From positions 82,765-146,764 of the forward strand of contig JBFIML010000003.1 of the NCBI GenBank assembly GCA_041611735.1: a stretch of DNA of 64,000 nt, in the 5' to 3' direction. The notes beneath the pieces are model-generated. The model was not told the origin of the DNA and did not search any database. It saw only the letters and a list, made by a program, of their open reading frames with translations. The DNA comes from Myxococcota bacterium. GTDB taxonomy: Bacteria > Myxococcota_A > UBA9160 > PR03. The translations under genes were made by a program, and so were the position numbers. Shown piece by piece: positions 36,072-60,357 of the stretch. Numbering within the stretch: the stretch's first letter is position 1; the number at the start of each line of letters is the position of its first letter.

Positions 36072-36872
36072 GTGACGCCGAGCCCGCCGCCGCGCGAGCT
36101 GGACACGGGGACCGAGCACCTGCGGGCCCGGGTCGAGGAGCGCGTGGGCGTCCTCACCCTGAACCGGCCCGAGGCCCGCAACGCCCTCTCGCTGCAGATG
36201 AAGCAGGCTCTGCGCAGTCTGGTTCCCCGGCTCGGCGAAGATCCGGAAGTGGGCTGTCTCCTGCTGACGGGCGCCGGCCGGGCCTTCTGTGCCGGCGGCG
36301 ACACCAAGCTGATGGCCCAGGGGCCGCCGCCCTCGCGCGAGGACCGCCTGCGGCTGCTGCACCAGGAGCACGAGGTGCCGGCGGCGCTGCACGCCCTGGC
36401 CAAGCCGGTGGTGGCGGCGCTGCCGGGCCCGGCTGCGGGCGCGGGGCTCTCCCTGGCCCTGGCCTGCGACATCCGCATCGCCGCGGAGAGCGCGTTCGTC
36501 ACCACGGCGTACGTGCGCCTGGCTCTCTCCGGCGACTATGGAGGCAGCTGGTTCCTGACCCGCCTGGTGGGCCCCGCCCGCGCGCGGGAGCTCTACTTCA
36601 CGTCGGATCGCGTCGGCGCCCGGGAGTGCGAGCGCCTCGGGATCGTGAACCGGGTCGTCCCGGACGAACGGCTCCAGGAGGAGGCCTGGGCCCTGGCGCG
36701 TCGCCTGGCCGCCGGCCCGCCCGTCGCGCTCCGCTACATGAAGGACAATCTGAACCGGGCGTTGCAGGACGACCTGGAGACCTGCCTCGCCCTCGAGGCC
36801 GAGCGCATGGTGGACAGCGCCTTCACCCCGGACCACCGCAAGGCCGCGGGGGACCGAGGGGGAGGTTCTTGA
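36072..36872 (+). CDS. Enoyl-CoA hydratase/isomerase; the stop codon is supplied by repeat element A
   Basis: LNRPEARNAL, FCAGGD, AAGAGLSLALACD, GDYGGSW; ends abnormally as DHRKAAGDRGGGS. Confidence 0.88.
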   Translation: MTPSPPPRELDTGTEHLRARVEERVGVLTLNRPEARNALSLQMKQALRSLVPRLGEDPEVGCLLLTGAGRAFCAGGDTKLMAQGPPPSREDRLRLLHQEHEVPAALHALAKPVVAALPGPAAGAGLSLALACDIRIAAESAFVTTAYVRLALSGDYGGSWFLTRLVGPARARELYFTSDRVGARECERLGIVNRVVPDERLQEEAWALARRLAAGPPVALRYMKDNLNRALQDDLETCLALEAERMVDSAFTPDHRKAAGDRGGGS

Positions 36873-36949
36873 CGAATCGACTTCTCCTCGAGGGTCTCTA
36901 CCAGAGGCGACAGGGGTGAAGGGAAGGTCAAGTCGTCAGGAACGTCCCC
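36859..36949. repeat. 91-bp inverted-repeat element A (REPIN/MITE-like)
   Basis: Left arm GGGGAGGTTCTTGACGAATCGACTTCTCC; right arm GGGAAGGTCAAGTCGTCAGGAACGTCCCC; 33-nt spacer. Confidence 0.85.
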
Positions 36950-36967
36950 GAGACCGAGGAGACCCCG

Positions 36968-37750
36968 ATGGCTTCCGAGACGATCCAGCTCGAGTACGAC
37001 GGGCCGCTGGCGATCATGAGCAACAACCGGCCCGAGAAGCACAACGCCGCCAACGACGAGATGGACGCGCGGCTGTGGGAGATCCTGGAGGAGCTGCACC
37101 GCCGGGAGGGGCTGCGGGCGGTGGTCTGGCGCGGCAACGGGCCGTCCTTCTCCTCCGGCCGCGACGTGACCGAGCTCGGCGTGCGCCAGGACGACGCGGG
37201 CCACCTCGATTTCATCGAGCGCGGGCACCGCGGCGCGCGCCGCCTGCTCACCCTCCCGGCGCCGGTGGTGGTGGCCCTCAAGGGCTGGGTGATCGGGGGA
37301 TCCTTCGAGCGGGCGCTGCTCTGCGATCTGCGCGTGGCCGGCGAGAGCGCCAGGATGCGGCTGCCGGAGATCCTCCATGGGGTCGTTCCGGACTCAGGCG
37401 GGACGGCACGGCTCCTCCAGATGGCGGGTCACGGGCTCGCCGCCGACCTGGCCCTGACGGGTCGGGTGATGACCGCGGAGGAGGCGCTGCGCCACGGCGT
37501 CGTCTCGCGCGTCGTGCCCGACGAGAGGCTGGACGAGACCGCCCTGGAGATCGCCCGCGCCATCGCCGGCGCACCGGCCTTCACGGTGCGCATGTTCCGC
37601 CGCACGCTCGCCCGCCTGGCGGACCCCCTGGTGGAGCGCTCCCTGGGCGAGGAGGCGCTCACCCAGTCGCTGGTCTTCGGCTCGCGCGACTACGCGGAGA
37701 TGAAGGCGGCCCGCGCCGAGCAGCGCGAGCCGAGCTACCAGGGCCGTTGA
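36968..37750 (+). CDS. Enoyl-CoA hydratase/isomerase
   Basis: NRPEKHNA, FSSGRD, IGGSFE, LPE..HGVVPDSGG, ends REPSYQGR. Confidence 0.88.
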   Translation: MASETIQLEYDGPLAIMSNNRPEKHNAANDEMDARLWEILEELHRREGLRAVVWRGNGPSFSSGRDVTELGVRQDDAGHLDFIERGHRGARRLLTLPAPVVVALKGWVIGGSFERALLCDLRVAGESARMRLPEILHGVVPDSGGTARLLQMAGHGLAADLALTGRVMTAEEALRHGVVSRVVPDERLDETALEIARAIAGAPAFTVRMFRRTLARLADPLVERSLGEEALTQSLVFGSRDYAEMKAARAEQREPSYQGR

Positions 37751-37761
37751 CCCTCCGCACT

Positions 37762-39306
37762 CTAGGGCCGCGCGCTCCAGGCGCGGGGCCCGAGCTGCGC
37801 GTGCAGCTCGCCCTGAACCTCCTCGACCCACGCGCAGCCGCGCGGGCGTGTCTCGCGGGGATCGATCAGGTCGTGCACGCCGAAGTCTCCGGCGCGCGGA
37901 AAGATCGACTGCGCCGCCGCCAGCTCCTCCTCGAGCTCGCGCCGACGCGCCTCGGGGTCCGGCGCGGCGGCGATCTCGCGGCGGAAGGCGAGCGCCACGC
38001 CCCCCTCCACCGGCAGCGCGCCGCTCTCCGCCGACGGCCAGGCCAACACCGTCGCCCGGGGCCCCACGTGCGCCCCCACCGCCACCCCGAACGCCTTGCG
38101 CACGACGACCGCCAGCCAGGGAACCCGGCTCTGGGCCACCGCAAAGATCGCCTCCATGCCGAAGCGGATCGTGGCCTCGCGCTCCGCCTCGGTGCCGATC
38201 ATGAAGCCGGGCTCGTCCACGAAGCTCACCACGGGCAGGTGGAAGGCGTCGCAGGTCTCCACCCAGCGGCGCACCTTGCGCGCACCCCGGGCCGTCATGG
38301 CGCCGCCCTCGTGATGGCAGTCGTTGGCGAGGACTCCGACCGGATGCCCGGCCAGGCGGGCGAGCCCGGTGATCTGGCTGCGTCCGTAGAGCGGCGACGT
38401 CTCGAAGAAGGAGCCCGGGTCCACCACCAGCTCCACCAGGCGACGCATCTTGTAGGCGCGACGCCGGCTGCGGGGCACCAGGGAGAGCAGTTCCTCCTCA
38501 CGCCGATCGGCCGGGTCGTCCGCCGGGCGGACGGGCGGCGCCTCGCCCACGTGGCTGGGCAGGTAGCCGAGGAAGCTGCGGATCTGGCGGAAGGCGTCCG
38601 CCTCGTCGTCGGCCCCGTTGTCGACCACGCCGCTGCGCAGGTGCACCTCGGCGCCGCCGAGCTCCTCCTTGGTGACGCGACGGCCGAGGGCCCGCTCCAC
38701 CAGCAGTGGCCCGGCGGTCAGCACCTGGGCGGTCTTCCGGGTCATGAGCGAGAAGTGCGACGCCACCAGCCGGGCGGCGGGAAAGCCCGCCACGGGACCG
38801 AGAGCCGCGCACACCACCGGCACCGAGGCAAGGGCCTCCACGCACAGGCGGTTCAGGGGCGAATCCGAGACCAGGTCGTAGCCGGAGCGGCCCCGCACCC
38901 CGCTCGCCCCCTCCACCGAGGCGCCACCCCCTTCCAGGAGGCGGACCAGGGGCACCCGCCGCCGGATGGCCAGCTCGTCGGCGAACTGGGCCTTGCGCAG
39001 GCCGGCCGGCCCGTAGGCGCCCCCGCGCAGGGTAAAGTCGTCGCCCGCCACCACGCAGGGCCGGCCGTCCACACGGGCCAGGCCCACCACCAGGTTGGCC
39101 GGCGTGAAGCCCTCGGCGCCGGGCTCCCCGTGGCCGGCGACCTCCCCGTACTCCCGGAAGCTCCCCGGATCGACCAGGGCCTGGACGCGCTCCCGGACGC
39201 TCAGGCGACCCTTCTCGTGCTGACGGGCGACGGCTTCGGGGCCGCCCTGCTCCCGGGCCCGGGCCCGGCGGCGCTCGATCTCGTCCACCTCGGGCTTCCA
39301 GCTCAC
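37762..39306 (-). CDS. Acyl-CoA carboxylase carboxyltransferase (beta) subunit
   Basis: QHEKGRLSVRER, DFTLRGG, ELGGAEVH, FVDEPGFMIGTEAE, IDPRETR; GTG start at 39306. Confidence 0.9.
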   Translation of the reverse strand: MSWKPEVDEIERRRARAREQGGPEAVARQHEKGRLSVRERVQALVDPGSFREYGEVAGHGEPGAEGFTPANLVVGLARVDGRPCVVAGDDFTLRGGAYGPAGLRKAQFADELAIRRRVPLVRLLEGGGASVEGASGVRGRSGYDLVSDSPLNRLCVEALASVPVVCAALGPVAGFPAARLVASHFSLMTRKTAQVLTAGPLLVERALGRRVTKEELGGAEVHLRSGVVDNGADDEADAFRQIRSFLGYLPSHVGEAPPVRPADDPADRREEELLSLVPRSRRRAYKMRRLVELVVDPGSFFETSPLYGRSQITGLARLAGHPVGVLANDCHHEGGAMTARGARKVRRWVETCDAFHLPVVSFVDEPGFMIGTEAEREATIRFGMEAIFAVAQSRVPWLAVVVRKAFGVAVGAHVGPRATVLAWPSAESGALPVEGGVALAFRREIAAAPDPEARRRELEEELAAAQSIFPRAGDFGVHDLIDPRETRPRGCAWVEEVQGELHAQLGPRAWSARP

Positions 39307-39439
39307 GCGGGCACGATACCACGGCGAAAACCGCCACTTGCCGGAGCGCACAGAGTGTGGGAAAGTGCCAACCCCCGAGAAGTGCGCCCATCCCTTCCCC
39401 GGGCCATCGAATCTGCACCCGCTGACGAGGGATCTCGCC

Positions 39440-42400
39440 ATGCCCCCGGAACTCCGCACCGGGCTCCTCGGAGCCTGCGCCGCCTTCCTGCTCGCCGTTC
39501 CCGCCTCCGCCAACGCCCCCTCGTTCATCACCTTCGAGACGGGACCGGTGCGACCCCTCGCCCTCGCACCGGGCGGCGGGCACCTGTTCGCGGTCAACAC
39601 GCCGGACGCCCGGCTGGAGATCTTCCGGGTCGGTCCAGGCGGCATCGCCCACGAAGGCTCGGTGTCCGTGGGCCTCGAGCCCGCGGCGGTGGCCGCCCGC
39701 ACCGACGACGAGGTCTGGGTGGTGAACCACCTCTCGGACAGCGTGAGCATCGTGGACGTGCGAGCGCGTCGCGTGGTGCGCACGCTGCTCGTGGGCGACG
39801 AGCCCCGCGACATCGTTTTCGCCGCGGGACGCGCCTTCGTCACCACGGCACACCGCGGACAGCATCGGACGCACCCGTCGATCGCTCACGTTCCCGGGGC
39901 GGGCGACCCGAAGCTCACCACGCCGGGAGTGCCACGAGCGGACGTCTGGGTGTTCGACGCGGCTCGCCCGGGCCCAGGACCGGGCGGCACGCCGCTGCGC
40001 ATCGTGGAGCTCTTCGGCGACACCCCCCGCGCCCTGGCCGTGAGCCCGGACGGCCGCACCGTCTACTCTGCGGTCTTCCACTCCGGGAACCAGACCGCCA
40101 CCGTGCCGGAAGGAGCCGTTTGCGACGGCTTCGAGCCCTGGGAGCCGTGCCAGGTGCGAGAGGTCGCCATGCCCGGCGGCAATCCCGGTCCCGCCGAGAG
40201 CCACGACGGCACCCCCGCCCCCGAGGTGGGACTGATCGTGAGGGTCGCGGACGGTCACTGGAAGGACGAGCTGGGCCGCGTCTGGGACGCGGCCGTCCCC
40301 TTCCGTCTGCCAGACCTGGACGTCTTCGCCCTCGACGCGTCCTCCCTGGAGCCGAAGCGCTCCTACCCGCACGTCGGGACCGTCCTGTTCAACATGGTCA
40401 CCAATCCCCGGACCGGCGCGCTCTACGTCTCCAACACCGAGGCCCGCAACGAAGTGCGCTTCGAGGGGGCGGGTGAAGCCGGGGGGAGCACGGTGCAGGG
40501 GCGTCTGCACGAGGCACGCATCACCGTGATCGCGGAGGGCGGCGTGCGACCACGACATCTGAACAAGCACATCGACTACGACGCACGGCCAGCACCGGCG
40601 GGCATGAAGGAGCACAGCCTGGCCACCCCCGTCGACATGGTCGTGAGCCGCGACGGGAAGACCCTCTACGTGGCGGCCTTCGGCTCGCGCAAGGTTGGCG
40701 TCCTGCCCACGGCTGCCCTCGAGGACGACAGCTTCGACCCCAGGCTCCTGAGCGCCCGCTACATCGCGCTGGGCGAGGATCCCGACGACCTCGTGACCGG
40801 CGGCGGGCCGAGCGGCCTTGCCCTGGACGAGCCCCGCGGCCGCCTCTACGTGCTGACCCGCTTCGACAACGCGGTGGCGGTGGTGGACCTGGCGGCGCGT
40901 TCGGTGGTGCAGCGGGTGGCGCTCTCCCACGCAGAGCCCGCCTGGGTGGTGGAAGGACGTCCCTTCCTCTACGACGCTCGCTTCTCGTCCAGCAACGGGG
41001 AGGCGTCCTGCGCCAGCTGCCACGTGTTCGGCGACCTGGACAGCCTGGCCTGGGATCTCGGCGACCCGGACGCGGAGGTCGGCTTCAACCCGATGCCGAT
41101 CCGGCTGGGCGGACTCATCGAGTTCGTGCAGCGGCTCCCCGGCAGCGGCGGCTTGTTCACGATCATCAATGGCACTGGGGGCCTGCGCGACTTCCACCCC
41201 ATGAAGGGACCCATGACCACGCAGACCCTGCGCGGCATGGTGAATAGCGGCCACATGCACTGGCGCGGAGACCGGGCGGATGGCTTCTTCGGCCTGGACG
41301 ACCCGAACACCAACGATGCGGAGCTCTCCTTCAAGAACTTCATCGTGGCCTTCCCGGGCCTGCTGGGGAGCGAGAAGGTGCTGACGGATCCGGAGCTGCA
41401 GCGGGGCATGCAGGCCTTCACGGACTTCACCCTGGAGATCACCCTACCCCCGAACCCGGTGCGGGCCCTGGACAACTCGTTGAACTCCGAGCAGGCGGCC
41501 GGACGTGAGTTCTACATGGGTGGGCCGGACCCGGACTTCCCCCACTTCTCCGACGGCGTTCCCTCCCAGATCCTGAGCACCCTGGTGGGAGGCGAGCCCA
41601 CCGCCTTCACCTGCAACGACTGCCATCGGCTGGATCCGGCCCGGGGCCACTTCGGCACCGACGGCGCGGCGAGCTTCGAGGCCGAGCAGCAGATCCTCAA
41701 GATTCCGCACCTGCGCAACTTGTATCAGAAGGTCGGGATGTTCGGACACGCGGCGGTGCCCTTCTTCGACGTGGGGGACAACGGCTTCCAGGGCGACCAG
41801 GTGCGCGGCTTCGGCTTCCTCCACGACGGCAGCACCGACACCATGTTCCGCTTCCTGCACGCCACCGTGTTCTCCCGGGACGCGTTCCGGATCGAGGGCC
41901 CGATCGGAAACCTGCTGGGCGTCGACTTCGACCGCGTCGGTTTCCAGGATGACGAGCAACGGCGCGAGATGGAGAGCTTCATGTTCGCCTTCGACACGGA
42001 TCTCGCCCCTGTGGTGGGTCAACAGGTGACGCTCAGCGCGGACAACGCCGAGGCCGTGGGCTCGCGCATCGACCTGCTGCTCGAGCGCTCGCAGACGCCC
42101 TTCGTCTCGAAGATCCTGGGTGAGGGCGCCGCCGAGTGCGACCTGGTGGTGAAGGGCAGCCCGGAAGGCCAGCCGCGCGGCTGGCTGCACGAGGGCAACG
42201 GCGTGTTCCGGTCCGACGACGGCGGCAGCACCGACGCAGCGGAGCTGCGCCGGCTCGCCCGGCGGGCGCCGCTCACCTGGACCTGCGTGCCGCCGGGTTC
42301 CGGCCGCCGCATGGCCATCGACCGGGACGAGGACGGGCGCCTGGACGCGCGTGACAACTGCCCCGCCGCGGCGAACGATGCCCAGACGGATCGGGACGCG

Positions 42401-42808: not shown

Positions 42809-43406
42809 ACTCGTCGCGCCGGGCCACACGGCGCTCCTGACCCAGGAGTGCCAGCGGGGCGTCGCGGGCGACCTCTCGGCCCTGCCGGAGCTGGCGGAGG
42901 CGGCCCGCGCCGTGCTTCCGCACGTCGGCCAGCTGGTCCGGGGGGCGCGCGCGGCCGGCGTCCGGGTGATCCACTGCACGGCGGAGCGGCGTTCCGACGG
43001 CCTGGGCGCCAATGCGAACGCGCGCATCTTCCAGTACATGGCCCGAGCCGGAACCAAGCTCCTGCCCGGCTCGCCGGCCGCCGAGCTCGTGCCGGAGATC
43101 GAGGCGGCGGCCTCGGATCTCGTCCTGCCGCGACTGCACGGCCTGTCGCCCTTCCACGCCACGGAGCTCGACCCGATCCTGCGCAACCTGGGCGTGCGAA
43201 CGGTCGTCGCGGTGGGCGTGTCCGTGAACGTGGCGATCCAGAACCTGGCCTTCGACGCGGTGAACGCCGCCTACCAGGTGGTGATCCCGCGCGACGCAGT
43301 GGCGGGCTTCCCGCCGGAGTACGCCGAGGCGGTCTTCCAGCACACCCTCGGCGCCGTGGCGACGCTCGTGACCACCGCCGAGCTGCTGGCCGCCTGGAGG
43401 CCGTAG
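42789..43406 (+). CDS. Isochorismatase/cysteine hydrolase family protein with non-canonical triad
   Basis: TALLTQECQRG, ELDPILRNLGV, GVSVNVAI, DAV motifs. Confidence 0.82.
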   Translation: MPLDLRELVAPGHTALLTQECQRGVAGDLSALPELAEAARAVLPHVGQLVRGARAAGVRVIHCTAERRSDGLGANANARIFQYMARAGTKLLPGSPAAELVPEIEAAASDLVLPRLHGLSPFHATELDPILRNLGVRTVVAVGVSVNVAIQNLAFDAVNAAYQVVIPRDAVAGFPPEYAEAVFQHTLGAVATLVTTAELLAAWRP

Positions 43407-45681: not shown

Positions 45682-46650
45682 CTAGCGCAGCTTCGCCACG
45701 ATCTCCCGGCCGAAGCGTGCCACCGCCTCGGCCCAGGCGGCGCGCGAATCCGCGGGCAGCACCACCGTGAGCCAGGTGACACCCAGGGCGGAGAGCTCCG
45801 CCGCGCTGTCGAGGAAGCGGGTCGGCTCCACGCGACCCGACGAGTCGCGGTCGAGGCCGAAGGGGACGAAGCAGACGTCGAGGGGCTGCGTCCGCCCCAC
45901 GCTCTCGGCGTGGGCGCGCAGGTAGGCCAGGCGCTCCGCCAGGTCCGCCACGCTCTCGAGCGGAGCAGTGCGCAGGTGGGGCGCCGTCCTGGCGGCGGTC
46001 GGGAAGGGCATCCAGCCGTCGCCGAGCTCGACCGCCCGCCGGATGGCCCGGCGGCTGTTGCCCCCCACCCAGACGGGCGGATGGGGCTTCTGACGGGGGC
46101 GCGGCAGCATGGTGTTCCCGGCCGCCGCAAAGCCGCGTCCCTGGAAACGGACCCCTTCCTCGGTCCAGGCCCGCTTCAGGGCCCGGATGCCCTCGTCGAT
46201 GGCCTCGTTGCGCACCTCGAAGTCGGCGCCCAGGGCGGCAAACTCGCTCTTCAGGTAGCCGGCCGCGACCCCCAGCACGAGACGTCCGCCCGAGAGGACG
46301 TCGAGGGTGGCGGCGGCCTTCGCCACCAGGAAGGGGTTGCGGTAGGCGAGCACCAGGACGTGGGTCTGGAGGCGCAGGCGCGTCGTGGCGGCGGCGGCGA
46401 AGGAGAGCGCCACGAAGGGATCCAGCGCGTGGTGCCCCCCGGCCGCGAGCCAGCGGTCGCCCGGGAAGGGATGGTCCGTGACGAAGCAGGCGTCGAAGCC
46501 CGCCGCCTCGGCCGCCCGCGCCATCTCCGCCACCGCCCCGGCCGTGAGGAACTCGTCCGGGCGATCCACCCGATCCGTGGGCAACTGCACCGAGAAGCAG
46601 AGCGGGGGACGTTCTCGACTGATTGACTCTTCGGAAGCCACCTGGGTCAT
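45682..46650 (-). CDS. LLM-class (probably F420-dependent) oxidoreductase; N-terminus lies in repeat element B1
   Basis: GFDACFVTDHP, LDPFVAL, YRNPFL, ATLDVLSGGR, PRPRQKPHPP; start 46650 or 46641, both inside the repeat. Confidence 0.88.
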   Translation of the reverse strand: MTQVASEESISRERPPLCFSVQLPTDRVDRPDEFLTAGAVAEMARAAEAAGFDACFVTDHPFPGDRWLAAGGHHALDPFVALSFAAAATTRLRLQTHVLVLAYRNPFLVAKAAATLDVLSGGRLVLGVAAGYLKSEFAALGADFEVRNEAIDEGIRALKRAWTEEGVRFQGRGFAAAGNTMLPRPRQKPHPPVWVGGNSRRAIRRAVELGDGWMPFPTAARTAPHLRTAPLESVADLAERLAYLRAHAESVGRTQPLDVCFVPFGLDRDSSGRVEPTRFLDSAAELSALGVTWLTVVLPADSRAAWAEAVARFGREIVAKLR

Positions 46651-46769
46651 GCTGATCCGCGCTGCCGGGCAGTCGATTCATCGACAACGGCCGGGTTTGC
46701 CTTTTCGGGAGGCCTCGGCGAGCATAACCTACCGAGTTTGCGAAAAGTCAGTCAGTCGAGAACGTCCCC
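46605..46769. repeat. Composite of two overlapping inverted-repeat elements: B1 46605-46694 and B2 about 46679-46769
   Basis: Outer arms GGGGACGTTCTCGACTGATTGACTCTTCG and CGAAAAGTCAGTCAGTCGAGAACGTCCCC (27/29 complementary); degenerate inner arms at 46670-46694 and 46697-46707. Confidence 0.82.
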
Positions 46770-47969
46770 ATGGATCTGCGTTACTCGGAGTCGGACGAGC
46801 GGTTTCGCGGCGAGCTGCGCAAGTGGTTGGCGGAGGCGGTCCCCGCCCACGGGCCGCCGCCCCCGGCCCACGACTGGGCCGCACGGCGCGCCTACGACAC
46901 CGGCTGGCAGCGCAAGCTCCACGACGCCGGCTATGCCGGCATCCACTGGCCCACCGAGTACGGCGGTCGCGGCGCCTCGCCCACGGAGCAGCTGGTCTAC
47001 CACGAGGAGATGGCCCGGGCCGGCGCGCCCTACATCGGGGTGAACTTCGTCGGCATGCTGCACGGCGGCCCGACGCTCGTCGCCGAGGGCACACCCGAGC
47101 AGAAGGCGCGCCACCTGCCGCGCATCCTGCGCGGCGAGGAGGTCTGGTGCCAGGGCTTCTCGGAGCCTGGCGCCGGCTCGGACCTGGCCGCGCTCCAGAC
47201 CCGTGCGGTACGCGACGGCGACGACTACGTCGTGACCGGCCACAAGGTCTGGTGCTCCTTCGCCCAGGTGGCGGACTTCGGCGAGCTCCTGGTGCGGACG
47301 AACCCGGAAGTGCCCAAGCACCAGGGCATCACCTGGCTCGTCCTGCCCATGGATCGGCCCGGCATCGAGATCCGACCGCTCCCGACCCTGGCCGGCGAAG
47401 GGGAGTTCAGCGAGGTGTTCCTGGAAGGCGTGCGCGTCCCGGTGGCGAACCGTGTGGGTGCCGAGAACGACGGCTGGCGCGTCACGAACGTGACGCTCCG
47501 CTTCGAGCGCGGCACCGCCTTCGCCATGGAGATCATCCAGCTCGGGGAGTTCGTGGCGGGCCTGGCACGCGTCGCGAAGCGGGTCACCCGTCACCACGCG
47601 CCGGCCTGGGAGGACGCGGGGCTGCGTCGCGAGATCGGCCGCGCCGCCGCGGAGGTGGATGCCCTGTGGGCCATGGTGAAGCTCTCGGTCTGCAAGGCCA
47701 GCGCAACGGGCGTCCCCGGCCTCGAGGGATCCGCCGTGAAGCTCCACTACAGCGAGCTCTACCAGCGAGTGACGGAGCTCGGGCTTCGGCTCCTCGGCCG
47801 CGCGGCCCTGTCCCGGGACGACGTGGCCGGCCTTCCCGTGAAGCCCCTGCTGTTCGAGGCCCTCAAGTCCCTGAACGCGACCATCGCCGCGGGCACCTCC
47901 CAGATCCAGCGCAACATCGTCGGGGAGCGCATCCTCGGCCTCCCGCGGGAGCCGCGGGCCCGTTCGTGA
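46770..47969 (+). CDS. Acyl-CoA dehydrogenase
   Basis: WPTEYGG, WCQGFSEPGAGSDL, GHKVWCS, TIAAGTSQIQRNI; ATG abuts element B and the stop lies in element C. Confidence 0.92.
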   Translation: MDLRYSESDERFRGELRKWLAEAVPAHGPPPPAHDWAARRAYDTGWQRKLHDAGYAGIHWPTEYGGRGASPTEQLVYHEEMARAGAPYIGVNFVGMLHGGPTLVAEGTPEQKARHLPRILRGEEVWCQGFSEPGAGSDLAALQTRAVRDGDDYVVTGHKVWCSFAQVADFGELLVRTNPEVPKHQGITWLVLPMDRPGIEIRPLPTLAGEGEFSEVFLEGVRVPVANRVGAENDGWRVTNVTLRFERGTAFAMEIIQLGEFVAGLARVAKRVTRHHAPAWEDAGLRREIGRAAAEVDALWAMVKLSVCKASATGVPGLEGSAVKLHYSELYQRVTELGLRLLGRAALSRDDVAGLPVKPLLFEALKSLNATIAAGTSQIQRNIVGERILGLPREPRARS

Positions 47970-48046
47970 CTGATTGACTTTTCGGACGGGGTCGATGAGC
48001 ATGGCTTCACTTCTCGGCGAAAAGTCGATCAGTGAAGAACGTCCCC
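47956..48046. repeat. 91-bp inverted-repeat element C
   Basis: Left arm GGGCCCGTTCGTGACTGATTGACTTTTCG; right arm CGAAAAGTCGATCAGTGAAGAACGTCCCC; 33-nt spacer. Confidence 0.85.
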
Positions 48047-48056
48047 GGAGCGGGCG

Positions 48057-49034
48057 ATGGACTTCCGGCTGAGCCAGGACCAGGAGGCGCTGCGCGAGGG
48101 AATCCGCGTCTTCTGCGCGGGGCGTTTTCCGACCGAGCGGCTTCCGGAGCTCGGCAAGCAGGGGACCCTGGACCGGGAGCTCTGGCGCGAGCTCGCCGAG
48201 ATGGGCGTCTTCTCCTTGCGGCGGCCGGAGCAGGAAGGAGGCGTCGGGCTCGGCTGCGCCGAAGCCGTGCTGGTCTTCGCCGAGCTGGGACGACGTCTCG
48301 TGCCGGGCCCGCTGGTATGGACGCAGCTCGCGGCGGAGTGGCTTCCACCGGCGGCGTCGGGCGAGCGGGTCGTGACGGGCCTCGACCGGGCGAACGGGGA
48401 GCCACACCTCGTCGAGCACCTGGCAGTGGCGGACGCGGTACTCGTGCTCCGGCAAGACGGGGTCCATCGCGTGGATCCCCAGACGCTCCGCGCCGAGGCC
48501 GTGGCGACGCCCCTCGACCCGCTGACCCCCGTGCACCACGTCCTCGAGCTCGCCGCCGGCGAGCGCCTGGCCGGCCCCGAGGCGGCGACCCGCCTGCGCC
48601 TGGAGGGCGCGGCCCTGGCGGCGGCCCAGCTCCTCGGCATCGCCGAGGCCACCCAGGAGCTGGCCACCGCCTACGCCTCGCAGCGCCACCAGTTCGGACG
48701 CGCCATCGGCTCCTTCCAGGCGGTGAAGCACCTGCTGGCGGACGCCTACGTGCGCCAGGAGCTGGCGCGGGCCGCGGTCTACGCGGCGGGGGCCACACTG
48801 GACGACCCGGAGGTCGGCGACGTGGCGCGGGCCGTCTCGGCCGCCAAGCTCGTGGCCGGGGAGGCCGCCCTCGCCAACGCCCGTACCTGCATCCAGGTGC
48901 ACGGAGGCATGGGGTACACCTGGGAGGTCCCGGCGCACTTCTATCTGAAGCGGGCCTGGGTGCTGGAGAACGCCTTCGGGACCGCGGCCCACCACGCCGA
49001 CGACGTGGCCACCGGCCTGGCGACGCGCGCCTGA
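48057..49034 (+). CDS. Acyl-CoA dehydrogenase family protein (short partner subunit)
   Basis: MDFRLSQDQ, RHQFGRAIGSFQAVKH, QVHGGMGYTWE. Confidence 0.88.
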   Translation: MDFRLSQDQEALREGIRVFCAGRFPTERLPELGKQGTLDRELWRELAEMGVFSLRRPEQEGGVGLGCAEAVLVFAELGRRLVPGPLVWTQLAAEWLPPAASGERVVTGLDRANGEPHLVEHLAVADAVLVLRQDGVHRVDPQTLRAEAVATPLDPLTPVHHVLELAAGERLAGPEAATRLRLEGAALAAAQLLGIAEATQELATAYASQRHQFGRAIGSFQAVKHLLADAYVRQELARAAVYAAGATLDDPEVGDVARAVSAAKLVAGEAALANARTCIQVHGGMGYTWEVPAHFYLKRAWVLENAFGTAAHHADDVATGLATRA

Positions 49035-52636: not shown

Positions 52637-52652
52637 CCGGGGAGGAGGGGCG

Positions 52653-53450: not shown

Positions 53451-53453
53451 CGG

Positions 53454-54200: not shown

Positions 54201-54239
54201 CGCGGCGGGTTCCCCAGCCAAGCGACCTGCTCTCCCGGC

Positions 54240-54546
54240 TCGCTGGGATGGGAGAGAAGCACGATGCTCAGACTCCCGATCATCGCCGCCACGGGAGCTG
54301 ACCTACGCCGTAGGTCCGCGGAAAGAGCATCAGCAGCCTGTCTCGGCCCACGCCCGGGTCTCCCGAAATCGAGATTGAAGACCAGACCCGCCAGCGCAAA
54401 CGCGGCGCGCTGGTGACGGGCACACCGTTCAGGCAGGGCAGTGTCCGTATGGTCATGAACGCGTGGTAGATGAAGGCTGGATAGAACAGCCCAACGTAGA
54501 GCGGCAGCCGATTGTGCAGGAACATGACGGAGAACTCACCGTGCCA
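54240..54546 (-). pseudogene. Probable remnant of a membrane protein gene
   Basis: Lower-GC intergenic stretch. The minus frame reads WHGEFSVMFLHNRLPLYVGLFYPAFIYHAFMTIR (protein-like TM segment) with non-coding-looking flanks. Another hydrophobic fragment (AAMIGSLSIVLL) lies in a different frame. Confidence 0.45.
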
Positions 54547-54634
54547 GCGCGGGCGCTGCCCTGCACCGAGCAGGGCCGTCGGGGTCTGGCGTCCGCCACG
54601 GCACCCGCGGCATGCTTCCCTCGGAGGTCGTTTC

Positions 54635-55477
54635 GTGGCAAGCCTCGAGGTCCTGATCGACGGGCTGGCCTTCCCGGAGGGCCCGCGCTGGCGGGAGGGC
54701 AGGCTCTGGTTCTCGGACATGCACCATCACGTGGTGATGACCGTGGACCCGAGCGGCGCGACCGAGGAGGTGGCGCGCGTGGAGGCGCGGCCCTCGGGCC
54801 TGGGCTGGCTCCCGGACGGCCGGCTGCTGGTCGTCTCGATGCTGGATCGGCGCTTGCTGCGGCTCGAGGGGGGCGAGCTGGTGGAGCACGCCGACCTCTC
54901 CGAGCTGGCGCCGTGGCACTGCAACGACATGGTGGTGGACGGCCACGGCCGCGCCTACGTCGGGAACTTCGGGTTCGATCTGGACGGGGGCGAGGAGCCG
55001 CGCAAGACCCCGCTCGTGCTCGTCCATCCGGACGGGCGCGCCGAGGTGGCGGCCGAGGGCCTGCGCTTCCCCAACGGCGCGGTCATCACGCCAGACGGCG
55101 GCACCCTGGTGGTGGGGGAGACCTTCGCCGCGCGGCTCACCGCCTTCCGCATCGGTGAAGACGGGCGTCTCACGGATCGGCGCGAGTGGGCTCGGCTCCA
55201 GGGCGCGGTGCCGGACGGCATCTGTCTCGACGCCGAGGGGGCGATCTGGGTGGCCTGCCCCGTCTCGAACCAGCTCCTCCGCGTGTGCGAGGGCGGCGCG
55301 GTCACCCACCGCATCCCCAGCGACCGCAAAGCCATCGCCTGCATGCTGGGCGGCGACGACGGCCGCACCCTGTTCGCCCTGACGGCACGAACGACGAGCC
55401 CCGACGAGGCGCCGAAGCAGCGTTCCGGACGCGTGGAGCGCGTGCCAGTCGACGTCCCCGGAGCCGGCTGGCCCTAG
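54635..55477 (+). CDS. SMP-30/gluconolactonase/LRE family protein
   Basis: FPEGPRW, WFSDM, CNDMVVD, FPNG, PDGICLDAEG; GGAGG RBS before GTG. Confidence 0.9.
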   Translation: MASLEVLIDGLAFPEGPRWREGRLWFSDMHHHVVMTVDPSGATEEVARVEARPSGLGWLPDGRLLVVSMLDRRLLRLEGGELVEHADLSELAPWHCNDMVVDGHGRAYVGNFGFDLDGGEEPRKTPLVLVHPDGRAEVAAEGLRFPNGAVITPDGGTLVVGETFAARLTAFRIGEDGRLTDRREWARLQGAVPDGICLDAEGAIWVACPVSNQLLRVCEGGAVTHRIPSDRKAIACMLGGDDGRTLFALTARTTSPDEAPKQRSGRVERVPVDVPGAGWP

Positions 55478-55521
55478 CGACGCGCGGGCGTGATAGGATC
55501 GGCCGCGGGCCAAGAGGAGTG

Positions 55522-57081
55522 ATGCTGCTCCACGACTTTCTCGATTTCCTGGGTCGCGAGCACCCCGATCGCCTGTGCATCGAGTGCCACGACCGCCGCC
55601 TCCGCTACGGGGAAGCCCTCGGCCACGCGAACCGCCTGGCCCGGGCGCTGACCTCCAAGGGCCTCGGCCCCGGCGACCGCTTCGCGGTGCTCGCCAAGAA
55701 TTGCCTCGAGTACCCCCTCTTCTACTTTGCGGGCTCCAAGTCCGGCGCGGTGCCGGTGCCGCTCAACTACCGTCTGGCTCCCCCGGAGCTGGCCTACATC
55801 GTGGGCGACGCCCACGCCAAGCTGGTGATCGCGCGCGGCGAGCTGGTCGAGAGCCTCGAGGGCGTGCGCGGCGACCTCGCTGGCGTGGAGACCTGGGTCT
55901 CCCTGGACGGTCCGCGGCCCCCCGGCTGGATCGACTACGCCGAGTGGCTTCAGGGGCAGCCCCACGGGCCGCCCGACCACCGCGGTGACGACCGCGACGA
56001 CCTCTACCAGATGTACACCAGCGGGACGACGGGGCGCCCCAAGGGTGCGGTGCTCACCCACGCGGCCGTGGCCGCCAACCTGATCCAGCAGATGGCGGCG
56101 GTGTCGTCCTCGCCCGACGACCACACCCTGGTGGTCGCCCCCATCTACCACGCGGCGGCGGCCCTCACGGCGATCGGTTCGATCGTGTCCGGCGGGTCGA
56201 TGCTCGTCCACGAGGACTTCTCGCCCGCGGGCGTCGTGCACGCGCTCTCCGAAGCAGGCGTCACGCGCACGACGCTGGTACCCGCCATGATCCAGGCCTG
56301 CCTGGCGCTGGTCCCGGACGTGGCCGAGCGCAACTACGAGAAGCTCCGCCTCATCGTCTACGGCGCTTCGCCCATCGCCGCCGAAGTCCTGCGCCGGGCT
56401 CTCCAGGTGTTCCGCTGTGATTTCACCCAGGGCTACGGCATGACCGAGACCACGGCGACGCTGACCTTCCTCTCCCCGGCGGACCACCGGCGTGCGCTCG
56501 CCGGCAAGCCGGAGCTCCTGCTCTCGGCGGGCCGCCCGATCGCGGGCACCGAGATCCGCATCGTCGATGGTGACGACCGACCCGTGGCCCCGGGCAGCGT
56601 CGGCGAGATCACGGCGCGTGGAGACCAGCTCATGCGCGGCTACTGGAACCTGCCCGAGGCGTCGGCGGACGCGCTCCGGGGAGGATGGATGCACACTGGG
56701 GATGCGGGCATGCTCGATGAGGAGGGCTACCTCTTCATCCAGGACCGGGTGAAGGACATGATCGTCTCGGGCGGCGAGAACGTCTACCCGCGCGAAGTGG
56801 AGAACGTCCTCTTCGAGCACCCCGCGGTGGCCGACGTGGCGGTGATCGGGGTCCCCGACAGCAGGTGGGGCGAGAGCGTGAAGGCGATCGTCGTGCCCCG
56901 CCAGGGCATGGACGCCAGCGCAGAGGACCTCCTCGCGTTCTGCAAGGGCCGCCTGGGCGGATTCAAGCAGCCCCGCTCGGTGGACTTCGTCTCCGCGCTG
57001 CCGCGCAACGCAAGCGGCAAGGTGTTGAAGAAGGATCTGCGCGAAAGGTACTGGCAGGGACGCGATCGACGCGTCTCGTGA
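55522..57081 (+). CDS. Long-chain acyl-CoA ligase (AMP-binding)
   Basis: YTSGTTGRPKG, YGMTE, HTGD, DRVKDMIVSGGENVYP, PRNASGKVLK. Confidence 0.93.
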   Translation: MLLHDFLDFLGREHPDRLCIECHDRRLRYGEALGHANRLARALTSKGLGPGDRFAVLAKNCLEYPLFYFAGSKSGAVPVPLNYRLAPPELAYIVGDAHAKLVIARGELVESLEGVRGDLAGVETWVSLDGPRPPGWIDYAEWLQGQPHGPPDHRGDDRDDLYQMYTSGTTGRPKGAVLTHAAVAANLIQQMAAVSSSPDDHTLVVAPIYHAAAALTAIGSIVSGGSMLVHEDFSPAGVVHALSEAGVTRTTLVPAMIQACLALVPDVAERNYEKLRLIVYGASPIAAEVLRRALQVFRCDFTQGYGMTETTATLTFLSPADHRRALAGKPELLLSAGRPIAGTEIRIVDGDDRPVAPGSVGEITARGDQLMRGYWNLPEASADALRGGWMHTGDAGMLDEEGYLFIQDRVKDMIVSGGENVYPREVENVLFEHPAVADVAVIGVPDSRWGESVKAIVVPRQGMDASAEDLLAFCKGRLGGFKQPRSVDFVSALPRNASGKVLKKDLRERYWQGRDRRVS

Positions 57082-57107
57082 GCCCAGCCGCGATCAGCCC
57101 GGCTGCA

Positions 57108-57141
57108 GCGGCTCCGGCGGCCGGGGCGCCGCCGGAGCCGC
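57108..57141. terminator. 14-bp GC stem-loop between convergent genes (possible bidirectional terminator)
   Basis: GCGGCTCCGGCGGC / 6-nt loop / GCCGCCGGAGCCGC; no U-tract. Confidence 0.5.
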
Positions 57142-57154
57142 CGCGCGCCCTGGG

Positions 57155-57943
57155 TCAGGGCCCCGTCTCGAACTCCACCTCGGAGATCGTCTGGTTTCCA
57201 CTGACCTCCCGGGCGATCACCTCGACCTTGTACTCGGTCGCGGGATCCAGGAACTCCGGAGGCACGGATACGGCCGTGGCCGTGGCCGAAACGTCGACGC
57301 GGAACACCCGCAGCGGGTCGTCCCGCTCCACGACGACCTGGTAGCCCACGATCTCGATCCCCGCCGGCGTCTGGACGGGTTCCCAGCGGACCGTGAAGCC
57401 GTTGGCACTGACCTCGTCCCCGTCCTCGGGAGCGGTGATTTCGGGTGCATCCGGGATGTCGTGGGTCAGCTCCGCGATCCCGAACAGCCTGCCTCCGTCG
57501 AGTGTGTCCCCGAGGAACGAGTAGAAGCCGGCCTGGAAGCGCTCCAGGAAATCCTCGAGGGGCTGCTCCTCGAAGGACGGCTCCGAGCTCTCGAGGAACA
57601 GCTCGGTGATGCCCTGCTGGGCGACGCTACGCTTGCCGCGGAAGTCGGCCACCTTGCGCCCGTCCGGGTCGAAGACGCGGACCCGCTCCCATCCTTCGCC
57701 GTCGAGAAGGATCTGGAGTCCTGCATCGCCGTCCGTGTCGTTGATCTCGATGAAGACCTGGACCTCGGCGAACGGCTCGGACTGCTTGTGGCGGGTGCCC
57801 TGGCTGCCGTCGTCGTTCTTCTTCTTGGCCAGCGCCGGCGTGGCGAGCAGGCCGAGCCCGAGCATCCACACCAGGGCCCAGAGCGCAGCCCGGGCCCCCG
57901 GGCGGGTCCGCGGGACAGCCGGAGTCGTCGAGAGGGTACGCAT
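57155..57943 (-). CDS. Secreted acidic protein with C-terminal fibronectin type III-like domain
   Basis: Signal peptide ending PALA; FIEINDTDGDAG; VRWEPV...GYQVVV...LDPATEYKVEVIA. Confidence 0.72.
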   Translation of the reverse strand: MRTLSTTPAVPRTRPGARAALWALVWMLGLGLLATPALAKKKNDDGSQGTRHKQSEPFAEVQVFIEINDTDGDAGLQILLDGEGWERVRVFDPDGRKVADFRGKRSVAQQGITELFLESSEPSFEEQPLEDFLERFQAGFYSFLGDTLDGGRLFGIAELTHDIPDAPEITAPEDGDEVSANGFTVRWEPVQTPAGIEIVGYQVVVERDDPLRVFRVDVSATATAVSVPPEFLDPATEYKVEVIAREVSGNQTISEVEFETGP

Positions 57944-58036
57944 GGGCGTGGTCTCCGTGGTTCGTTGCGGTTTCCAGCGCGGCGCCTTCGCCCGGTGCGC
58001 AGGCGCCGTCTTCGCCGATTCCACCAGCTCGACAGC

Positions 58037-58104
58037 GCGGAGACCATCCGCCGAGTGTGATAGGCGCTGCTCCGGGGAGCGGAGACCATCCGCCAGGTGT
58101 GATA
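58037..58104. repeat. Two 26-bp direct repeats, 42-bp period, each with a GCGGA-N5-TCCGC hairpin
   Basis: GCGGAGACCATCCGCCGAGTGTGATA (58037-58062) and GCGGAGACCATCCGCCAGGTGTGATA (58079-58104). Confidence 0.85.
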
Positions 58105-58174
58105 CACGGCCCCGCCTTGCCGCTCGGCGCCCGAGGAATCCCCCTGGGGCGAAAGCGGCTGCAACGAAACGGGA

Positions 58175-58852
58175 TCAGGCCGTGCGCTTGCGAGCCTCGA
58201 AGAGCCAGAAGCATCCGTCGAGCAGCATGCGCTCGGCGACGGGCGCTCCGAAGGGAGAGGCGCCGAAGACGGTGCGCGCCTCCTCGGGCGAGAGCGCCTT
58301 GGTGAAGATGCGCGGGTAGATCAGTCGGAAGAACCAGTGACGGAGCCTCTGGCGGTGGGTGGCCACGGCCTCCGGCGGGGCGAGGCGGTTCATCTCCCCG
58401 ATGAAGGCGCGGCCGCCCGGGGCCAGCACGCGATGCAGCTCGCGGAGACCCGCCACCGGGTCGGGCCAGTGCTTGATGGATCCGCTGCTCAAGGCGGCAT
58501 CGAAGCGGCCGTCGGGAAAGGGCAGCCGCGCCACGTCGGCCAGCTCGAAGTGGAGCCGCTCCGCCGCAGGCGATTGCGCCGCGTGCTCCTGCGCCAGCTC
58601 GATCATGGTGGGCGCGAGATCGATGCCCCAGACCTCCGCGTCAGGCAGGCGCTCGGCAATGAGAATGGTGAACTGGCCGGGGCCGCATCCCGCGTCGAGC
58701 AGGCGCCGCACCCCCGCCAGCTCCCCCAGGACATCCTCCACCAGCGCGGGAAGGATCTCCCGAAAGGCCGCCTGGACGCCGCGGTCGTAGCCCCGGGCGA
58801 TCCAGCCGTCCATGGGACCCTTGCCGGTCCGCAACAGGCGAAGCACGCTCAT
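58175..58852 (-). CDS. Class I SAM-dependent methyltransferase (UbiE-like)
   Basis: LDAGCGPG, GIDLAPTM, ADVARLPFPDGRFD, ELHRVLAPGG; ATGA overlap. Confidence 0.88.
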   Translation of the reverse strand: MSVLRLLRTGKGPMDGWIARGYDRGVQAAFREILPALVEDVLGELAGVRRLLDAGCGPGQFTILIAERLPDAEVWGIDLAPTMIELAQEHAAQSPAAERLHFELADVARLPFPDGRFDAALSSGSIKHWPDPVAGLRELHRVLAPGGRAFIGEMNRLAPPEAVATHRQRLRHWFFRLIYPRIFTKALSPEEARTVFGASPFGAPVAERMLLDGCFWLFEARKRTA

Positions 58853-59883
58853 TGTCCCTCCCCTTCCGGTCGTGCCCCACGCAGGCTCTGGACCGCAGTG
58901 GCCCAACGCGCCGGGTCCGCCGCGTAGGGCGCCACCAGGCTCACACGGTCGGCGAAGTCGCCGCAGCGCTCCCGCACCGCCTCCGCCAGCTGGTCGAGCG
59001 GAGCCCGCACCGCCACGAGCTCCAGCAGCTCGTCCGGAACGAGGCTCGCCATGTCGTCCCAGCGGCCTTGCTTGGACAAGCGGTTCAGCTGGGGCTGGAG
59101 CTCGCCGAAGCGGTGGGCCTCGAGCACCACGCGGTAGGCGGGTGTCGAGCCGTAGAAGGCGATCTGCTGACGAACGAAGCGGTCGGCCGTCTCCCGCTCC
59201 GCGTCGTCGGCGCCGCTCACCACCATGAGCTGGACGGCCACCTCGAGGTCCGCTCGGGTGCGGCCGGCCCGGCTGAGACCCCGCTCCAGGGCCGGCAGCG
59301 TCGTCTCGCGCCAGGAGCACCGGGTGTGGAGGGGATGCACGAAGAAGCCATCCGCCACCTCACCGGCCACCTCGGTCATGCGCGGGCCGACCCCGGCCAG
59401 GAAGATGGGCGGGCTTCCGAAGGCGTTCGGACCGGGATCGAAGAACGGCGTCATCAGGGTGTGCTGGTAGAAGTCGCCCCGAAAGTCCAGGCGCTCCCGC
59501 TCGCTCCAGCAGCGCCAGATGGCGCGGATGGCCAGCACCAGCTCGCGCATGCGCGCCGCAGGCCGGGACCACGGCATGCCGAAGCGCTTCTCCACGTGGG
59601 CCCGGATCTGGGAGCCGAGGCCCAGGATGAAGCGCCCCCGCGCCAGCGTCTGCAGGTCCCAGCCCAGGTAGGCCAGCAGCATGGGGTTGCGGGCAAAGGC
59701 CACGGCGATGGCCGTGGAGAGCTCCAGGCGCTCGGTGGCCTGGGCCGCCAGGGCCAGGGGCAGGAACGGGTCGTGGGGGCCCTCGAAGGTGAAGGCGCCG
59801 TCGTAGCCCAGGGCCTCGAGCCGGTGCGCCGTCGGGCCGGCGTCGGCGAGGCTCGCGGGAAGCAGCGCGGCGTCGATCTTCAC
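58849..59883 (-). CDS. LLM-class (probably F420-dependent) oxidoreductase
   Basis: EGPHDPF, AIAVAFARNPM, LGLGSQIRAHVEKRF, HTLMTPFF, QIAFYGSTPAY; GTG abuts element D. Confidence 0.9.
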   Translation of the reverse strand: MKIDAALLPASLADAGPTAHRLEALGYDGAFTFEGPHDPFLPLALAAQATERLELSTAIAVAFARNPMLLAYLGWDLQTLARGRFILGLGSQIRAHVEKRFGMPWSRPAARMRELVLAIRAIWRCWSERERLDFRGDFYQHTLMTPFFDPGPNAFGSPPIFLAGVGPRMTEVAGEVADGFFVHPLHTRCSWRETTLPALERGLSRAGRTRADLEVAVQLMVVSGADDAERETADRFVRQQIAFYGSTPAYRVVLEAHRFGELQPQLNRLSKQGRWDDMASLVPDELLELVAVRAPLDQLAEAVRERCGDFADRVSLVAPYAADPARWATAVQSLRGARPEGEGQ

Positions 59884-59973
59884 GGGGACGCTCTTGACGA
59901 ATTGACTCTTTCCGGAGACGTCATGCAGCGCTCGCACCTCGCGCGAGAAGGTCAATCAGTCAAGAACGTCCCC
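59884..59973. repeat. 90-bp inverted-repeat element D
   Basis: Left arm GGGGACGCTCTTGACGAATTGACTC; right arm AAGGTCAATCAGTCAAGAACGTCCCC; spacer nearly identical to element E. Confidence 0.88.
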
Positions 59974-60357
59974 GGCTTCGATCTCCAGGACGACGCGGTC
60001 GGCCCAGCGGCCGGACATGCGCGCGGCGGTGCGAGCGAGCCGCATCTGCCAGCCGTACTTGCGTTCGAGGAGCGCGAGGCCGGGATCCATGGCGCGCGGG
60101 TCCTCCACGACGCGCGCGCTCGCCTCGATCCAGGGCCCGTGCACCCGCCCCCGCATGTCGCAGGGTGCCAGGCGCACCCGCGGGTTCGCACGCAGGCGCT
60201 TCACCTTGCCTGACTTCCCGTTGGTGTAGACGTACAGCCGCTTCCCATCGCCCGCGATCCAGACGGGCGTCCGCACCTCCCGGCCGCTCCGGCGGAAGGT
60301 CGCCAGGCTGACATAGCGGGGACGTCCTTGACGAATCGACTTCTCGGAAGACGTCAT
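59956..60357 (-). CDS. PPOX-class (probably F420-dependent) split-barrel oxidoreductase; both termini encoded by repeat elements
   Basis: RYVSLATFRRSG...TPVW...SGKVKRLRANPRV...CDMRG...KYG. Confidence 0.88.
   Translation of the reverse strand: MTSSEKSIRQGRPRYVSLATFRRSGREVRTPVWIAGDGKRLYVYTNGKSGKVKRLRANPRVRLAPCDMRGRVHGPWIEASARVVEDPRAMDPGLALLERKYGWQMRLARTAARMSGRWADRVVLEIEAGDVLD

Follow-up and report, generated by a model that had tools for sequence, protein, structure and literature searches.

The closest described relatives of the repeat analysed here are the TIRtron/TIRYT units, in which the gene of a tyrosine transposase of the Y1 type lies between long terminal inverted repeats (TIRs). As characterised in the original description, these TIRs share the tag GGGGWSAS (GGGG[AT][CG]A[CG]) and the dispersed TIR repeats are organised as REP-like dimers (Di Nocera, De Gregorio & Rocco 2013, PMC3733652). 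TIRYT was assigned to subclass 2.1 of TnpA_REP with Bac_DnaA_C or helix-turn-helix (HTH) extensions (Quentin et al. 2018, PMC6006769), and as far as the two accounts go its transposases carry HUH and Tyr motifs and a C-terminal HTH of the Bac_DnaA_C, HTH_23 or HTH_28 type. Two further systems are similar in part. In REPINs, two conserved units in inverted orientation are separated by a spacer of lower conservation and together form a hairpin; they are described as non-autonomous, tied to a Y1 transposase and persistent over long periods of vertical inheritance (Bertels & Rainey 2011, PMC3116915). For GTAG REPs it was reported that their termini supply TAG stops to flanking open reading frames (ORFs), that they occur at the C- and N-termini of ORFs and that tandem and convergent junctions are preferred (PMC3733652). 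Here, we analyse a hairpin-forming repeat that is present in five copies in a stretch of 64,000 nucleotides (the window) from a Myxococcota bacterium (GenBank assembly GCA_041611735.1, contig JBFIML010000003.1). The window is part of contig C3 of an assembly of 4.09 Mb in 118 contigs, with 95% completeness and 72% GC. The initial annotation had placed all five copies correctly at start and stop codons and had regarded the element as a domesticated module for translation initiation, translation termination or mRNA processing, or as one that targets gene ends. We consider it reasonably likely that the loci are gene-less TIR dimers of a TIRYT-type transposon and that the writing of protein termini is a by-product of insertion and selection.

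The element and its relation to TIRYT transposon ends

The element is composed of two inverted 28-nt arms around an unconserved centre of ~35 nt, giving ~90 bp in total. The arm begins GGGGACGTTCTTGACTGATTGAC..., its consensus reads GGGGACGTTCTTGACTGATTGACTTTTC, and with 46% GC it is AT-rich in a genome of 72% GC. Upon RNA folding, whole elements are predicted to form long hairpins (-44 to -50 kcal/mol, z = -4.3 to -6.4; copy 1: -47.3 kcal/mol, z = -4.3; copy 4: -49.6 kcal/mol, z = -6.4) and single 49-nt arms fold like shuffled sequences (z = 0.24 and 0.74), showing that the arm itself is no palindrome. A fuzzy search of the genome returned 67 arms at six mismatches or fewer, and a profile search followed by pairing resulted in 39 paired elements of 70–165 bp (mostly 80–93 bp) plus eight strong solo arms. 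Across the copies, the per-position identity of the arm ranges from 49 to 99%.

Exact matches to the arm motif were found in metagenome-assembled genomes (MAGs) of other phyla with GC contents of 34–54%, and in two of these MAGs the motif lies 30–55 nt upstream of a Y1_Tnp gene. Among 39 loci fetched, five carry the motif inverted on both sides of the Y1 gene (L013, L021, L025, L027 and L028) and ten carry it on at least one side; the same arrangement of motif and gene is present in a metagenome locus (L053). The transposase of L013, a protein of 330 aa with the motifs NHFHLLL and RYIHLNP, matches Y1_Tnp (1.2e-11) and, weakly and below the Pfam cut-off, Bac_DnaA_C (2.7e-5), and thereby conforms to the TIRYT type as outlined in PMC3733652 and PMC6006769. 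With 62.8 bits against the NCBIfam model of the REP-associated tyrosine transposase (RAYT; NF047646, cut-off 80) it is no RAYT equivalog. Furthermore, gene-less dimers of 89–91 bp with a conserved centre exist in another organism, in which they occur twice in L056. This shows that the arm corresponds to the predicted TIR of a RAYT-like family of TIRYT tyrosine transposases.

Like the TIRtron/TIRYT repeats, to the extent that PMC3733652 and PMC6006769 describe them, the family has a RAYT-like Y1 gene with a C-terminal Bac_DnaA_C-like HTH between long GGGG... inverted repeats, and its dispersed gene-less copies are intergenic, often dimers and devoid of a hairpin within the single unit. The traits listed above for REPINs are shared as well. 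Single units of REP and REPIN systems are short palindromes with a GTAG (or CGTC) tag; the differences from the REPIN-RAYT system of that account (PMC3116915) are that the window arm is no palindrome and carries no GTAG tag, and that the related transposase scores under the NCBIfam REP_Tyr_transpos cut-off. As a class, TIRYT- and REPIN-like repeats are known.

The insertions have left no target-site duplication. In 32 elements, adjacent repeats have lengths of 0 (19 elements), 1 (8), 2 (3) and 3 nt (2), the same as in a cross-pairing control, and the longest word shared by the two 12-nt flanks averages 3.31 nt for own pairs and 3.29 nt for cross pairs. The flanks hold no target motif apart from a C at position -1 (40 of 64 sides). 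The missing duplication is consistent with the single-strand mechanism of Y1 transposases. It also bears on the alternative that the element is an ordinary miniature inverted-repeat transposable element derived from an insertion sequence with a DDE transposase, for which 28-nt TIRs, a length of ~90 bp and dispersed copies would be typical. However, in addition to the missing duplication, all autonomous units that were found have a Y1/HUH gene between the same TIRs and none has a DDE gene there, no genome-wide DDE scan having been made, and we regard this origin as very improbable.

Some loci with related arms have features of their own. In L056 (1529–2254) an 89-bp dimer interrupts one copy of the Y1 transposase gene behind codon 23, and the second dimer, whose centre is ~90% identical, lies 500 nt from the first. 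On a metagenome contig of 145 kb (L055:200–3420), six single arms stand in one orientation in an arrangement resembling a mosaic repeat, and three of the six are fused to another shared module (...CGTCGGTTCGCGTACCGACGGACG...). Moreover, short tandem repeats are present just before the left TIR, being GGGCAAAAG-like in L013 (1420–1446) and consisting of two copies of AAAGAAGATA in L010.

The arms within one element are more alike than arms of different elements (21.9 vs. 20.9 of 28 positions, reached in 0 of 10,000 permutations), and an identical change in both arms occurred 50 times vs. 34.8 expected. The centres are unrelated to each other (median local alignment score 8 vs. 7 for shuffled centres); only three centre pairs exceed the shuffled maximum, two of which are neighbours on the same contig, including copies 4 and 5 of the window with 93% identity. 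The conservation of AT-rich arms around randomised centres and the likeness of the two arms speak for the alternative that the host has domesticated the element as a punctuation or regulatory cassette for lipid-catabolic operons, the writing of stops and starts being part of its function. The element could then act through its hairpin as a terminator or insulator, stabilise RNA, bind a protein or couple the translation of neighbouring genes. However, 194 changes are confined to a single arm, and Watson-Crick pairing between the arms is found at 76–79% of the positions. Sense-strand G-U pairs are not in excess over A-C in tandem junctions (38 vs. 29, p = 0.33), giving no signal of selection for pairing at the RNA level. 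Furthermore, no Rfam family matches positions 36000–61000 at E ≤ 1, no intrinsic-terminator-like and no sigma-70 promoter-like site is present in 46400–48200, and what comes after the arms is CCCC plus flank and not a U tract. Taken with the identity of the arms as TIRYT TIRs and with the stop donation already in print (described for GTAG REPs in PMC3733652), these results do not support the dedicated, domesticated translation or mRNA-processing module of the initial annotation; domestication as such is possible, and we judge it unlikely.

Gene ends within and beside the arms

Genes were called with a purpose-built caller based on codon usage (3539 genes, 90% coding density), whose stops are robust and whose starts are approximate. 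Each of the 39 paired copies is located at a junction between genes. In total, 45 gene 3' ends face an arm, and in 35 of these (78%) the stop lies inside the arm, 34 times as TGA and once as TAG. The last base of these in-arm stops falls on arm position 14 (12 cases), 18 (15), 22 (6) and 17 or 24 (2). In the other ten, the native stop is preserved and its distance from the arm edge ranges from -7 to +3 nt. Uniform intergenic insertion would put 5.8% within 7 nt of the facing stop; the contact with gene termini noticed in the window is therefore beyond chance genome-wide.

Read inward, the consensus arm contains TGA at positions 12–14, 16–18 and 20–22, i.e., in all three frames, and read outward it is stop-free, as are 58 of the 78 individual arms. 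Individual arms have decayed, however, and a stop in each of the three frames is left in only 12 of the 78. In the 72 in-register arms, 79 of 183 TGAs that are not used (43%) have stayed intact, as has the TGA of the incoming frame in 33 of 33 cases. Since the used TGA is the first stop by definition, the informative observation is that read-through does not occur: no ORF reading in passes beyond the arm, which at 43% intact TGAs has a probability of ~1e-12. This is evidence that the in-arm stops are in use and kept by selection, which would act after or at the moment of insertion. They add 3–7 residues to the proteins, with tails such as -GRS, -GDVLD and -GTFLTD. On the start side, 8 of 32 facing sides abut the start within 3 nt (seven by the gene caller; the eighth, the GTG at 59883, was placed by orthologues), and most others are 10–50 nt away.

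Stop donation by such repeats is already published and is here unusually systematic. With the GTAG REPs, as PMC3733652 presents them, the element shares a terminus that gives the neighbour its stop, the location at both C- and N-termini of ORFs and the preference for tandem and convergent junctions. It differs from them in that the stop is TGA, lies 12–22 nt inside the arm in any of the three frames and adds 3–7 residues, and in that the alignment of homologues supports the replacement of at least one N-terminus, which is no annotation artefact.

The narrowness of the gene junctions may account for much of this contact. The median gap is 9 nt for convergent, 22 nt for tandem and 153 nt for divergent pairs, and about a quarter of the convergent gaps overlap by at least 4 nt. 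In such very tight junctions an insertion falls on or beside stops. The 45 gaps bearing an element or solo arm comprise 17 convergent, 21 tandem and 7 divergent junctions, compared with 485, 2392 and 499 among all gaps (chi-square p = 3e-5). Alternatively, the transposase or its single-strand DNA mechanism might insert the dimer actively at stops or gene ends, so that the adjacency was set at the moment of insertion, as the initial annotation had suggested as its second option. The skewed junction classes fit this, as does the fact that all 45 stops are in or within 7 nt of an arm. Moreover, the element hugs the stop in tandem junctions and leaves the start 0–230 nt away, and the arm begins ~0–3 residues from the native C-terminus in five of six ends compared, the exception being a hydratase (~-13 residues). 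However, the C at -1 is the only flank motif, native stops are mostly gone and not kept beside the element, and where they survive their spacing varies between 0 and 7 nt. A stop-specific target would not predict the start-facing sides abutting within 3 nt, and with such short or overlapping convergent gaps little specificity is needed to land on stops. Targeting of gene ends stays a live option, which we hold to be possible rather than probable.

Table 1. Copies of the element in the window and the genes and reading frame in contact with them.
Feature	Positions	Strand	Length	Relation to the element
Copy 1	36859..36949		91 bp	tandem junction of two enoyl-CoA hydratase genes; left arm gives the stop of the upstream gene
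Copy 2	46605..46769		165 bp	occupies the entire divergent junction of LLM and acyl-CoA dehydrogenase (ACAD) genes
Copy 3	47956..48046		91 bp	separates two acyl-CoA dehydrogenase subunit-like genes; left arm gives the stop
Copy 4	59884..59973		90 bp	left edge touches the GTG of the LLM gene; right arm gives the PPOX stop (GDVLD)
Copy 5	60318..60408		91 bp	would give ATG and 13 N-terminal residues to the PPOX gene
Open frame MTSPERVNSSRASP	59880..59924	-	14 codons	begins at the central ATG of copy 4
Enoyl-CoA hydratase	36072..36872	+		ends ...AAGDRGGGS, with its TGA in the copy 1 arm
Second enoyl-CoA hydratase	36968..37750	+		native ATG and GAGGAG kept, 18 nt from copy 1
LLM-class F420-type oxidoreductase	45682..46650	-		native start lost: CTC where homologues have ATG/GTG
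Acyl-CoA dehydrogenase	46770..47969	+		native ATG touches copy 2; native ...REPR is followed by arm-coded ARS and stop
Acyl-CoA dehydrogenase-like partner	48057..49034	+		native start, 10 nt from copy 3
LLM-class oxidoreductase	58849..59883	-		native GTG (MKIDAALL...) touches copy 4 with no spacer
PPOX-class F420-type enzyme	59956..60357	-	133 aa	N-terminal 13 aa would come from copy 5, C-terminal GDVLD and stop from copy 4
Redoxin/AhpC-type	60415..60897	-		native TGA 6 nt outside copy 5

Within the window, the stops following GGGS (36872), ARS (47969) and GDVLD (59956, minus strand) each use an in-arm TGA, as had been read from the sequence before. The comparison with orthologues lacking the element, which the initial annotation had called for, shows what was lost, i.e., two native starts and one C-terminal segment, as well as native starts that abut arms; the orthologous operons also work without the element. 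The hydratase upstream of copy 1 has lost ~13 conserved C-terminal residues (...AF.EKR.PVF[KR]G[RKQ] before the stop) that are kept in nine of nine orthologue loci, which shows one real C-terminal truncation, as judged from the alignment. A partial arm-like GGGGAC stands 10 nt ahead of the copy 1 arm.

With 109 nt (46633–46741), the centre of copy 2 is unusually long. The arms of this copy can be prolonged to 49 nt, with a complementarity of 80%. The length of the centre is near that of the 42–92 nt native intergenic region of the orthologous LLM/ACAD junctions that carry no element, and the centre holds the palindrome GTCGATTCATCGAC. On one side of copy 2, the acyl-CoA dehydrogenase starts at an ATG directly after CCCC, and in other genera its orthologues begin with [M/V/L]-[D/N]-L-R-Y at the same point in 10 of 10 readable loci (an eleventh is masked upstream), so that this ATG is native. 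On the other side, the N-terminus MTQVASEESISRERP- of the LLM gene (ATG 46650) runs out of the arm in frame. Its homologues start with M/V-R-[FV]-[ST]-[VIL]-Q-L-P in 26 of 30 sequences and have a longer called N-terminus in four; here, L-C-F-S-V-Q-L-P stands at the homologue start point, two nucleotides off the arm, indicating that the native start was lost. Ahead of the conserved first strand, in-frame starts are limited to ATG 46650 and GTG 46641, both in copy 2. The initial annotation had stated for this gene and the PPOX gene that no ATG or GTG lies between element and conserved core. For the LLM gene this does not strictly hold: an alternative GTG follows 14 nt after the edge, but it already belongs to the conserved first strand, and its use would cost four conserved residues. 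In the orthologous junctions (L058–L067) a recurring ACGAT[AT]C-like motif, e.g. CGATATACGATACG, is observed that is absent from the element-filled junction of the window; it may be a promoter or operator.

For the PPOX gene the statement holds. The N-terminus MTSSEKSIRQGRP- (ATG 60357) runs out of the copy 5 arm in frame, the conserved core in an alignment of 20 sequences begins with R-Y-V-S-L-A-T-F at the arm edge, no start codon lies between arm and core, and the next in-frame start would remove invariant residues. At the other end, the core ends at ...EIE, directly before the residues written by copy 4. Taken together, the alignments suggest that the element now encodes the N-terminus of at least one gene and probably of two, provided that translation begins at these internal ATGs. 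The shared N-terminal peptide that had been pointed out is present in both genes, and is merely the same arm read in the same frame. Ten of the 78 arms (e.g., C8:28727 and C8:73459) read ...CATTGAC and thereby contain an outward ATG 19 nt from the edge, in the frame of this same peptide (M-S-Q-E-R-P).

The remaining junctions keep more of their native ends. The LLM gene at copy 4 starts with GTG directly after CCCC, and nine of 11 orthologue loci start alike with M/L/V-K-[IV]-D, so that this GTG is native too. The TGA of the 14-codon frame in copy 4 overlaps this start as GTGA, a layout typical of termination-reinitiation coupling, which the frame may serve. Between copy 3 and the ATG of the partner gene, GGAGCG plus 4 nt are left intact. 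In the orthologous ACAD-ACAD junctions, stop and next start overlap or abut in six of ten cases (TGATG or TGA-ATG), and the others have gaps of ~2–33 nt. A convergent pair on contig C54 keeps both native ends within 0–2 residues before the arm; in the four of nine orthologous loci where the neighbour is still present, the gaps measure 9, 15, -4 and 83 nt. Between the centres of copies 1–3 and the orthologous junctions, no convincing likeness was seen by eye, the available relatives belonging to other, distant genera.

Rickettsia palindromic elements are inserted in frame inside ORFs and have coding sequence on both sides. The comparison with them in the initial annotation is apt only loosely: in both cases a palindromic repeat adds residues to probably functional proteins, and the elements of the window differ in lying at junctions, where they end or begin ORFs. 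In E. coli, REPs near stop codons reportedly lower the expression of the upstream gene via ribosome stalling. The element is similar in that a hairpin is positioned within a few nucleotides of the stop, so that the terminating ribosome would meet a stem, and it differs in that the stop is located inside the 5' arm.

Age, flanking families and probable origin

The arm was not found at three mismatches or fewer in any of 40 relatives. A relaxed pattern gave 36 matches in this genome; when 192 further genomes of the order were scanned, 12 had one match each, the reversed control giving 14, and blastn of five arm-bearing metagenome loci yielded no match to the window's genome. Contigs from an independent run (X5) are identical over copies 2, 4 and 5. 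In a ~91%-identical relative (run X9), one contig ends inside the arm at 46632, another bridges copy 3 and differs there by a net 9 nt in length, and small indels are present at the right edge of copy 5. Since the copies are at the same loci there, the insertions predate the divergence from this relative. For domestication, this distribution is double-edged: the occupation of the same loci in the relative argues for it and the failure to find the family above the control in the 192 genomes of the order argues against it, as do the orthologous operons that work without the element and the loss of a conserved C-terminal segment from a flanking gene.

Families of the beta-oxidation type are common among the 73 flanking genes, in the window at 36072–37750, 45682–49034 and 58849–59883. 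Acyl-CoA dehydrogenases (nine of the 42 in the genome, p = 1e-7) and AMP-binding ligases (five of 21, p = 5e-5) are strongly enriched, and SDR (three), enoyl-CoA hydratase (two), LLM (two) and thiolase-like (two) genes also occur. The flanking genes form 41 paralogue pairs, whereas 1000 contig-preserving draws gave 7.2 on average and never more than 34. That insertions are simply tolerated beside large families of paralogues was considered as the sole cause of the enrichment and rejected, the largest family (135 genes) having one flanking member and a family of 37 genes none. As the enrichment at acyl-CoA dehydrogenase and AMP-binding genes goes beyond contig-level clustering, it favours a cassette used by the host; the copies do, however, occur in all three junction classes. 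Two paralogous ACAD-ACAD junctions carry elements, each abutting GGAGCG. This might reflect a function at such junctions, and since the two insertions look independent it would also fit targeting. The small ORF of copy 4 that ends on the start of the next gene is a further point for domestication.

The preferred reading, i.e., gene-less TIRYT dimers whose effect on protein termini is a by-product, can be put as a sequence of steps. A dimer, mobilised in trans by a TIRYT transposase, would insert without target-site duplication into a very narrow gene junction. Either a gene end would be hit directly or the spacer would be deleted later, with the result that translation terminates 3–7 codons into the arm. 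As inward TGAs exist in all three frames, hits in the last codons or the loss of the spacer would be harmless in any frame. Where a start was lost, an ATG of the element that is in frame could take its place. Subsequently, purifying selection would keep the one TGA in use and the other two would decay. An erosion of this kind after insertion is in line with the truncated hydratase and with the indel-rich edge that was found in the X9 relative.

Several points weigh against this reading. The window arm starts with GGGGACGT, which agrees with the published GGGGWSAS tag at only six of eight positions. No Y1 transposase gene was found in the 95%-complete, 118-contig assembly (PF01797: 0 matches; best tblastn hit E = 2.4), which also favours domestication. 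Conserved arms around unrelated centres are not expected from the plain decay of a selfish repeat, and the enrichment of flanking families is not explained by a pure by-product model. None of the 45 stop-facing sides is more than 7 nt from the stop, which exceeds a simple filter for tolerated insertions, so that a target preference or an efficient loss of spacers is needed; targeting is for this reason a serious rival. The differences from the TIRtron/TIRYT repeats, as far as PMC3733652 and PMC6006769 describe those, are the same in part, namely the deviating arm start, the TIRYT gene that was not found and the unconserved centres, to which the high share of facing stops inside the arm is added.

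A combination of transposon origin and domestication can be imagined as well. A streamlined myxobacterium might have adopted the fossil TIRYT repeats and used them as the standard cassette between the genes of its lipid-catabolic operons, in which the host keeps the arms and the loop drifts. The stop in the 5' arm would let the terminating ribosome melt the stem, and in some copies the small ORF or ATG would hand ribosomes to the downstream gene. We consider this scenario distinctly improbable.

The derivation from gene-less TIRYT dimers, which we continue to favour, has consequences for annotation, as dozens of C-termini and a few N-termini would be encoded by repeat DNA, so that masking or start-codon rules can lead to mis-called genes. 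It also raises the question why the arms are conserved and the copies concentrated at acyl-CoA dehydrogenase and ligase genes in a genome with no detected transposase. For the family, the finding links a nearly invariant TIR motif of 24–28 nt, found in phyla of 34–72% GC, to TIRYT transposases with a DnaA-like HTH. For genome evolution, it would illustrate how native stops and starts can be replaced by a selfish hairpin repeat in a genome almost free of intergenic DNA, with a signature of selection in the TGAs that are used.

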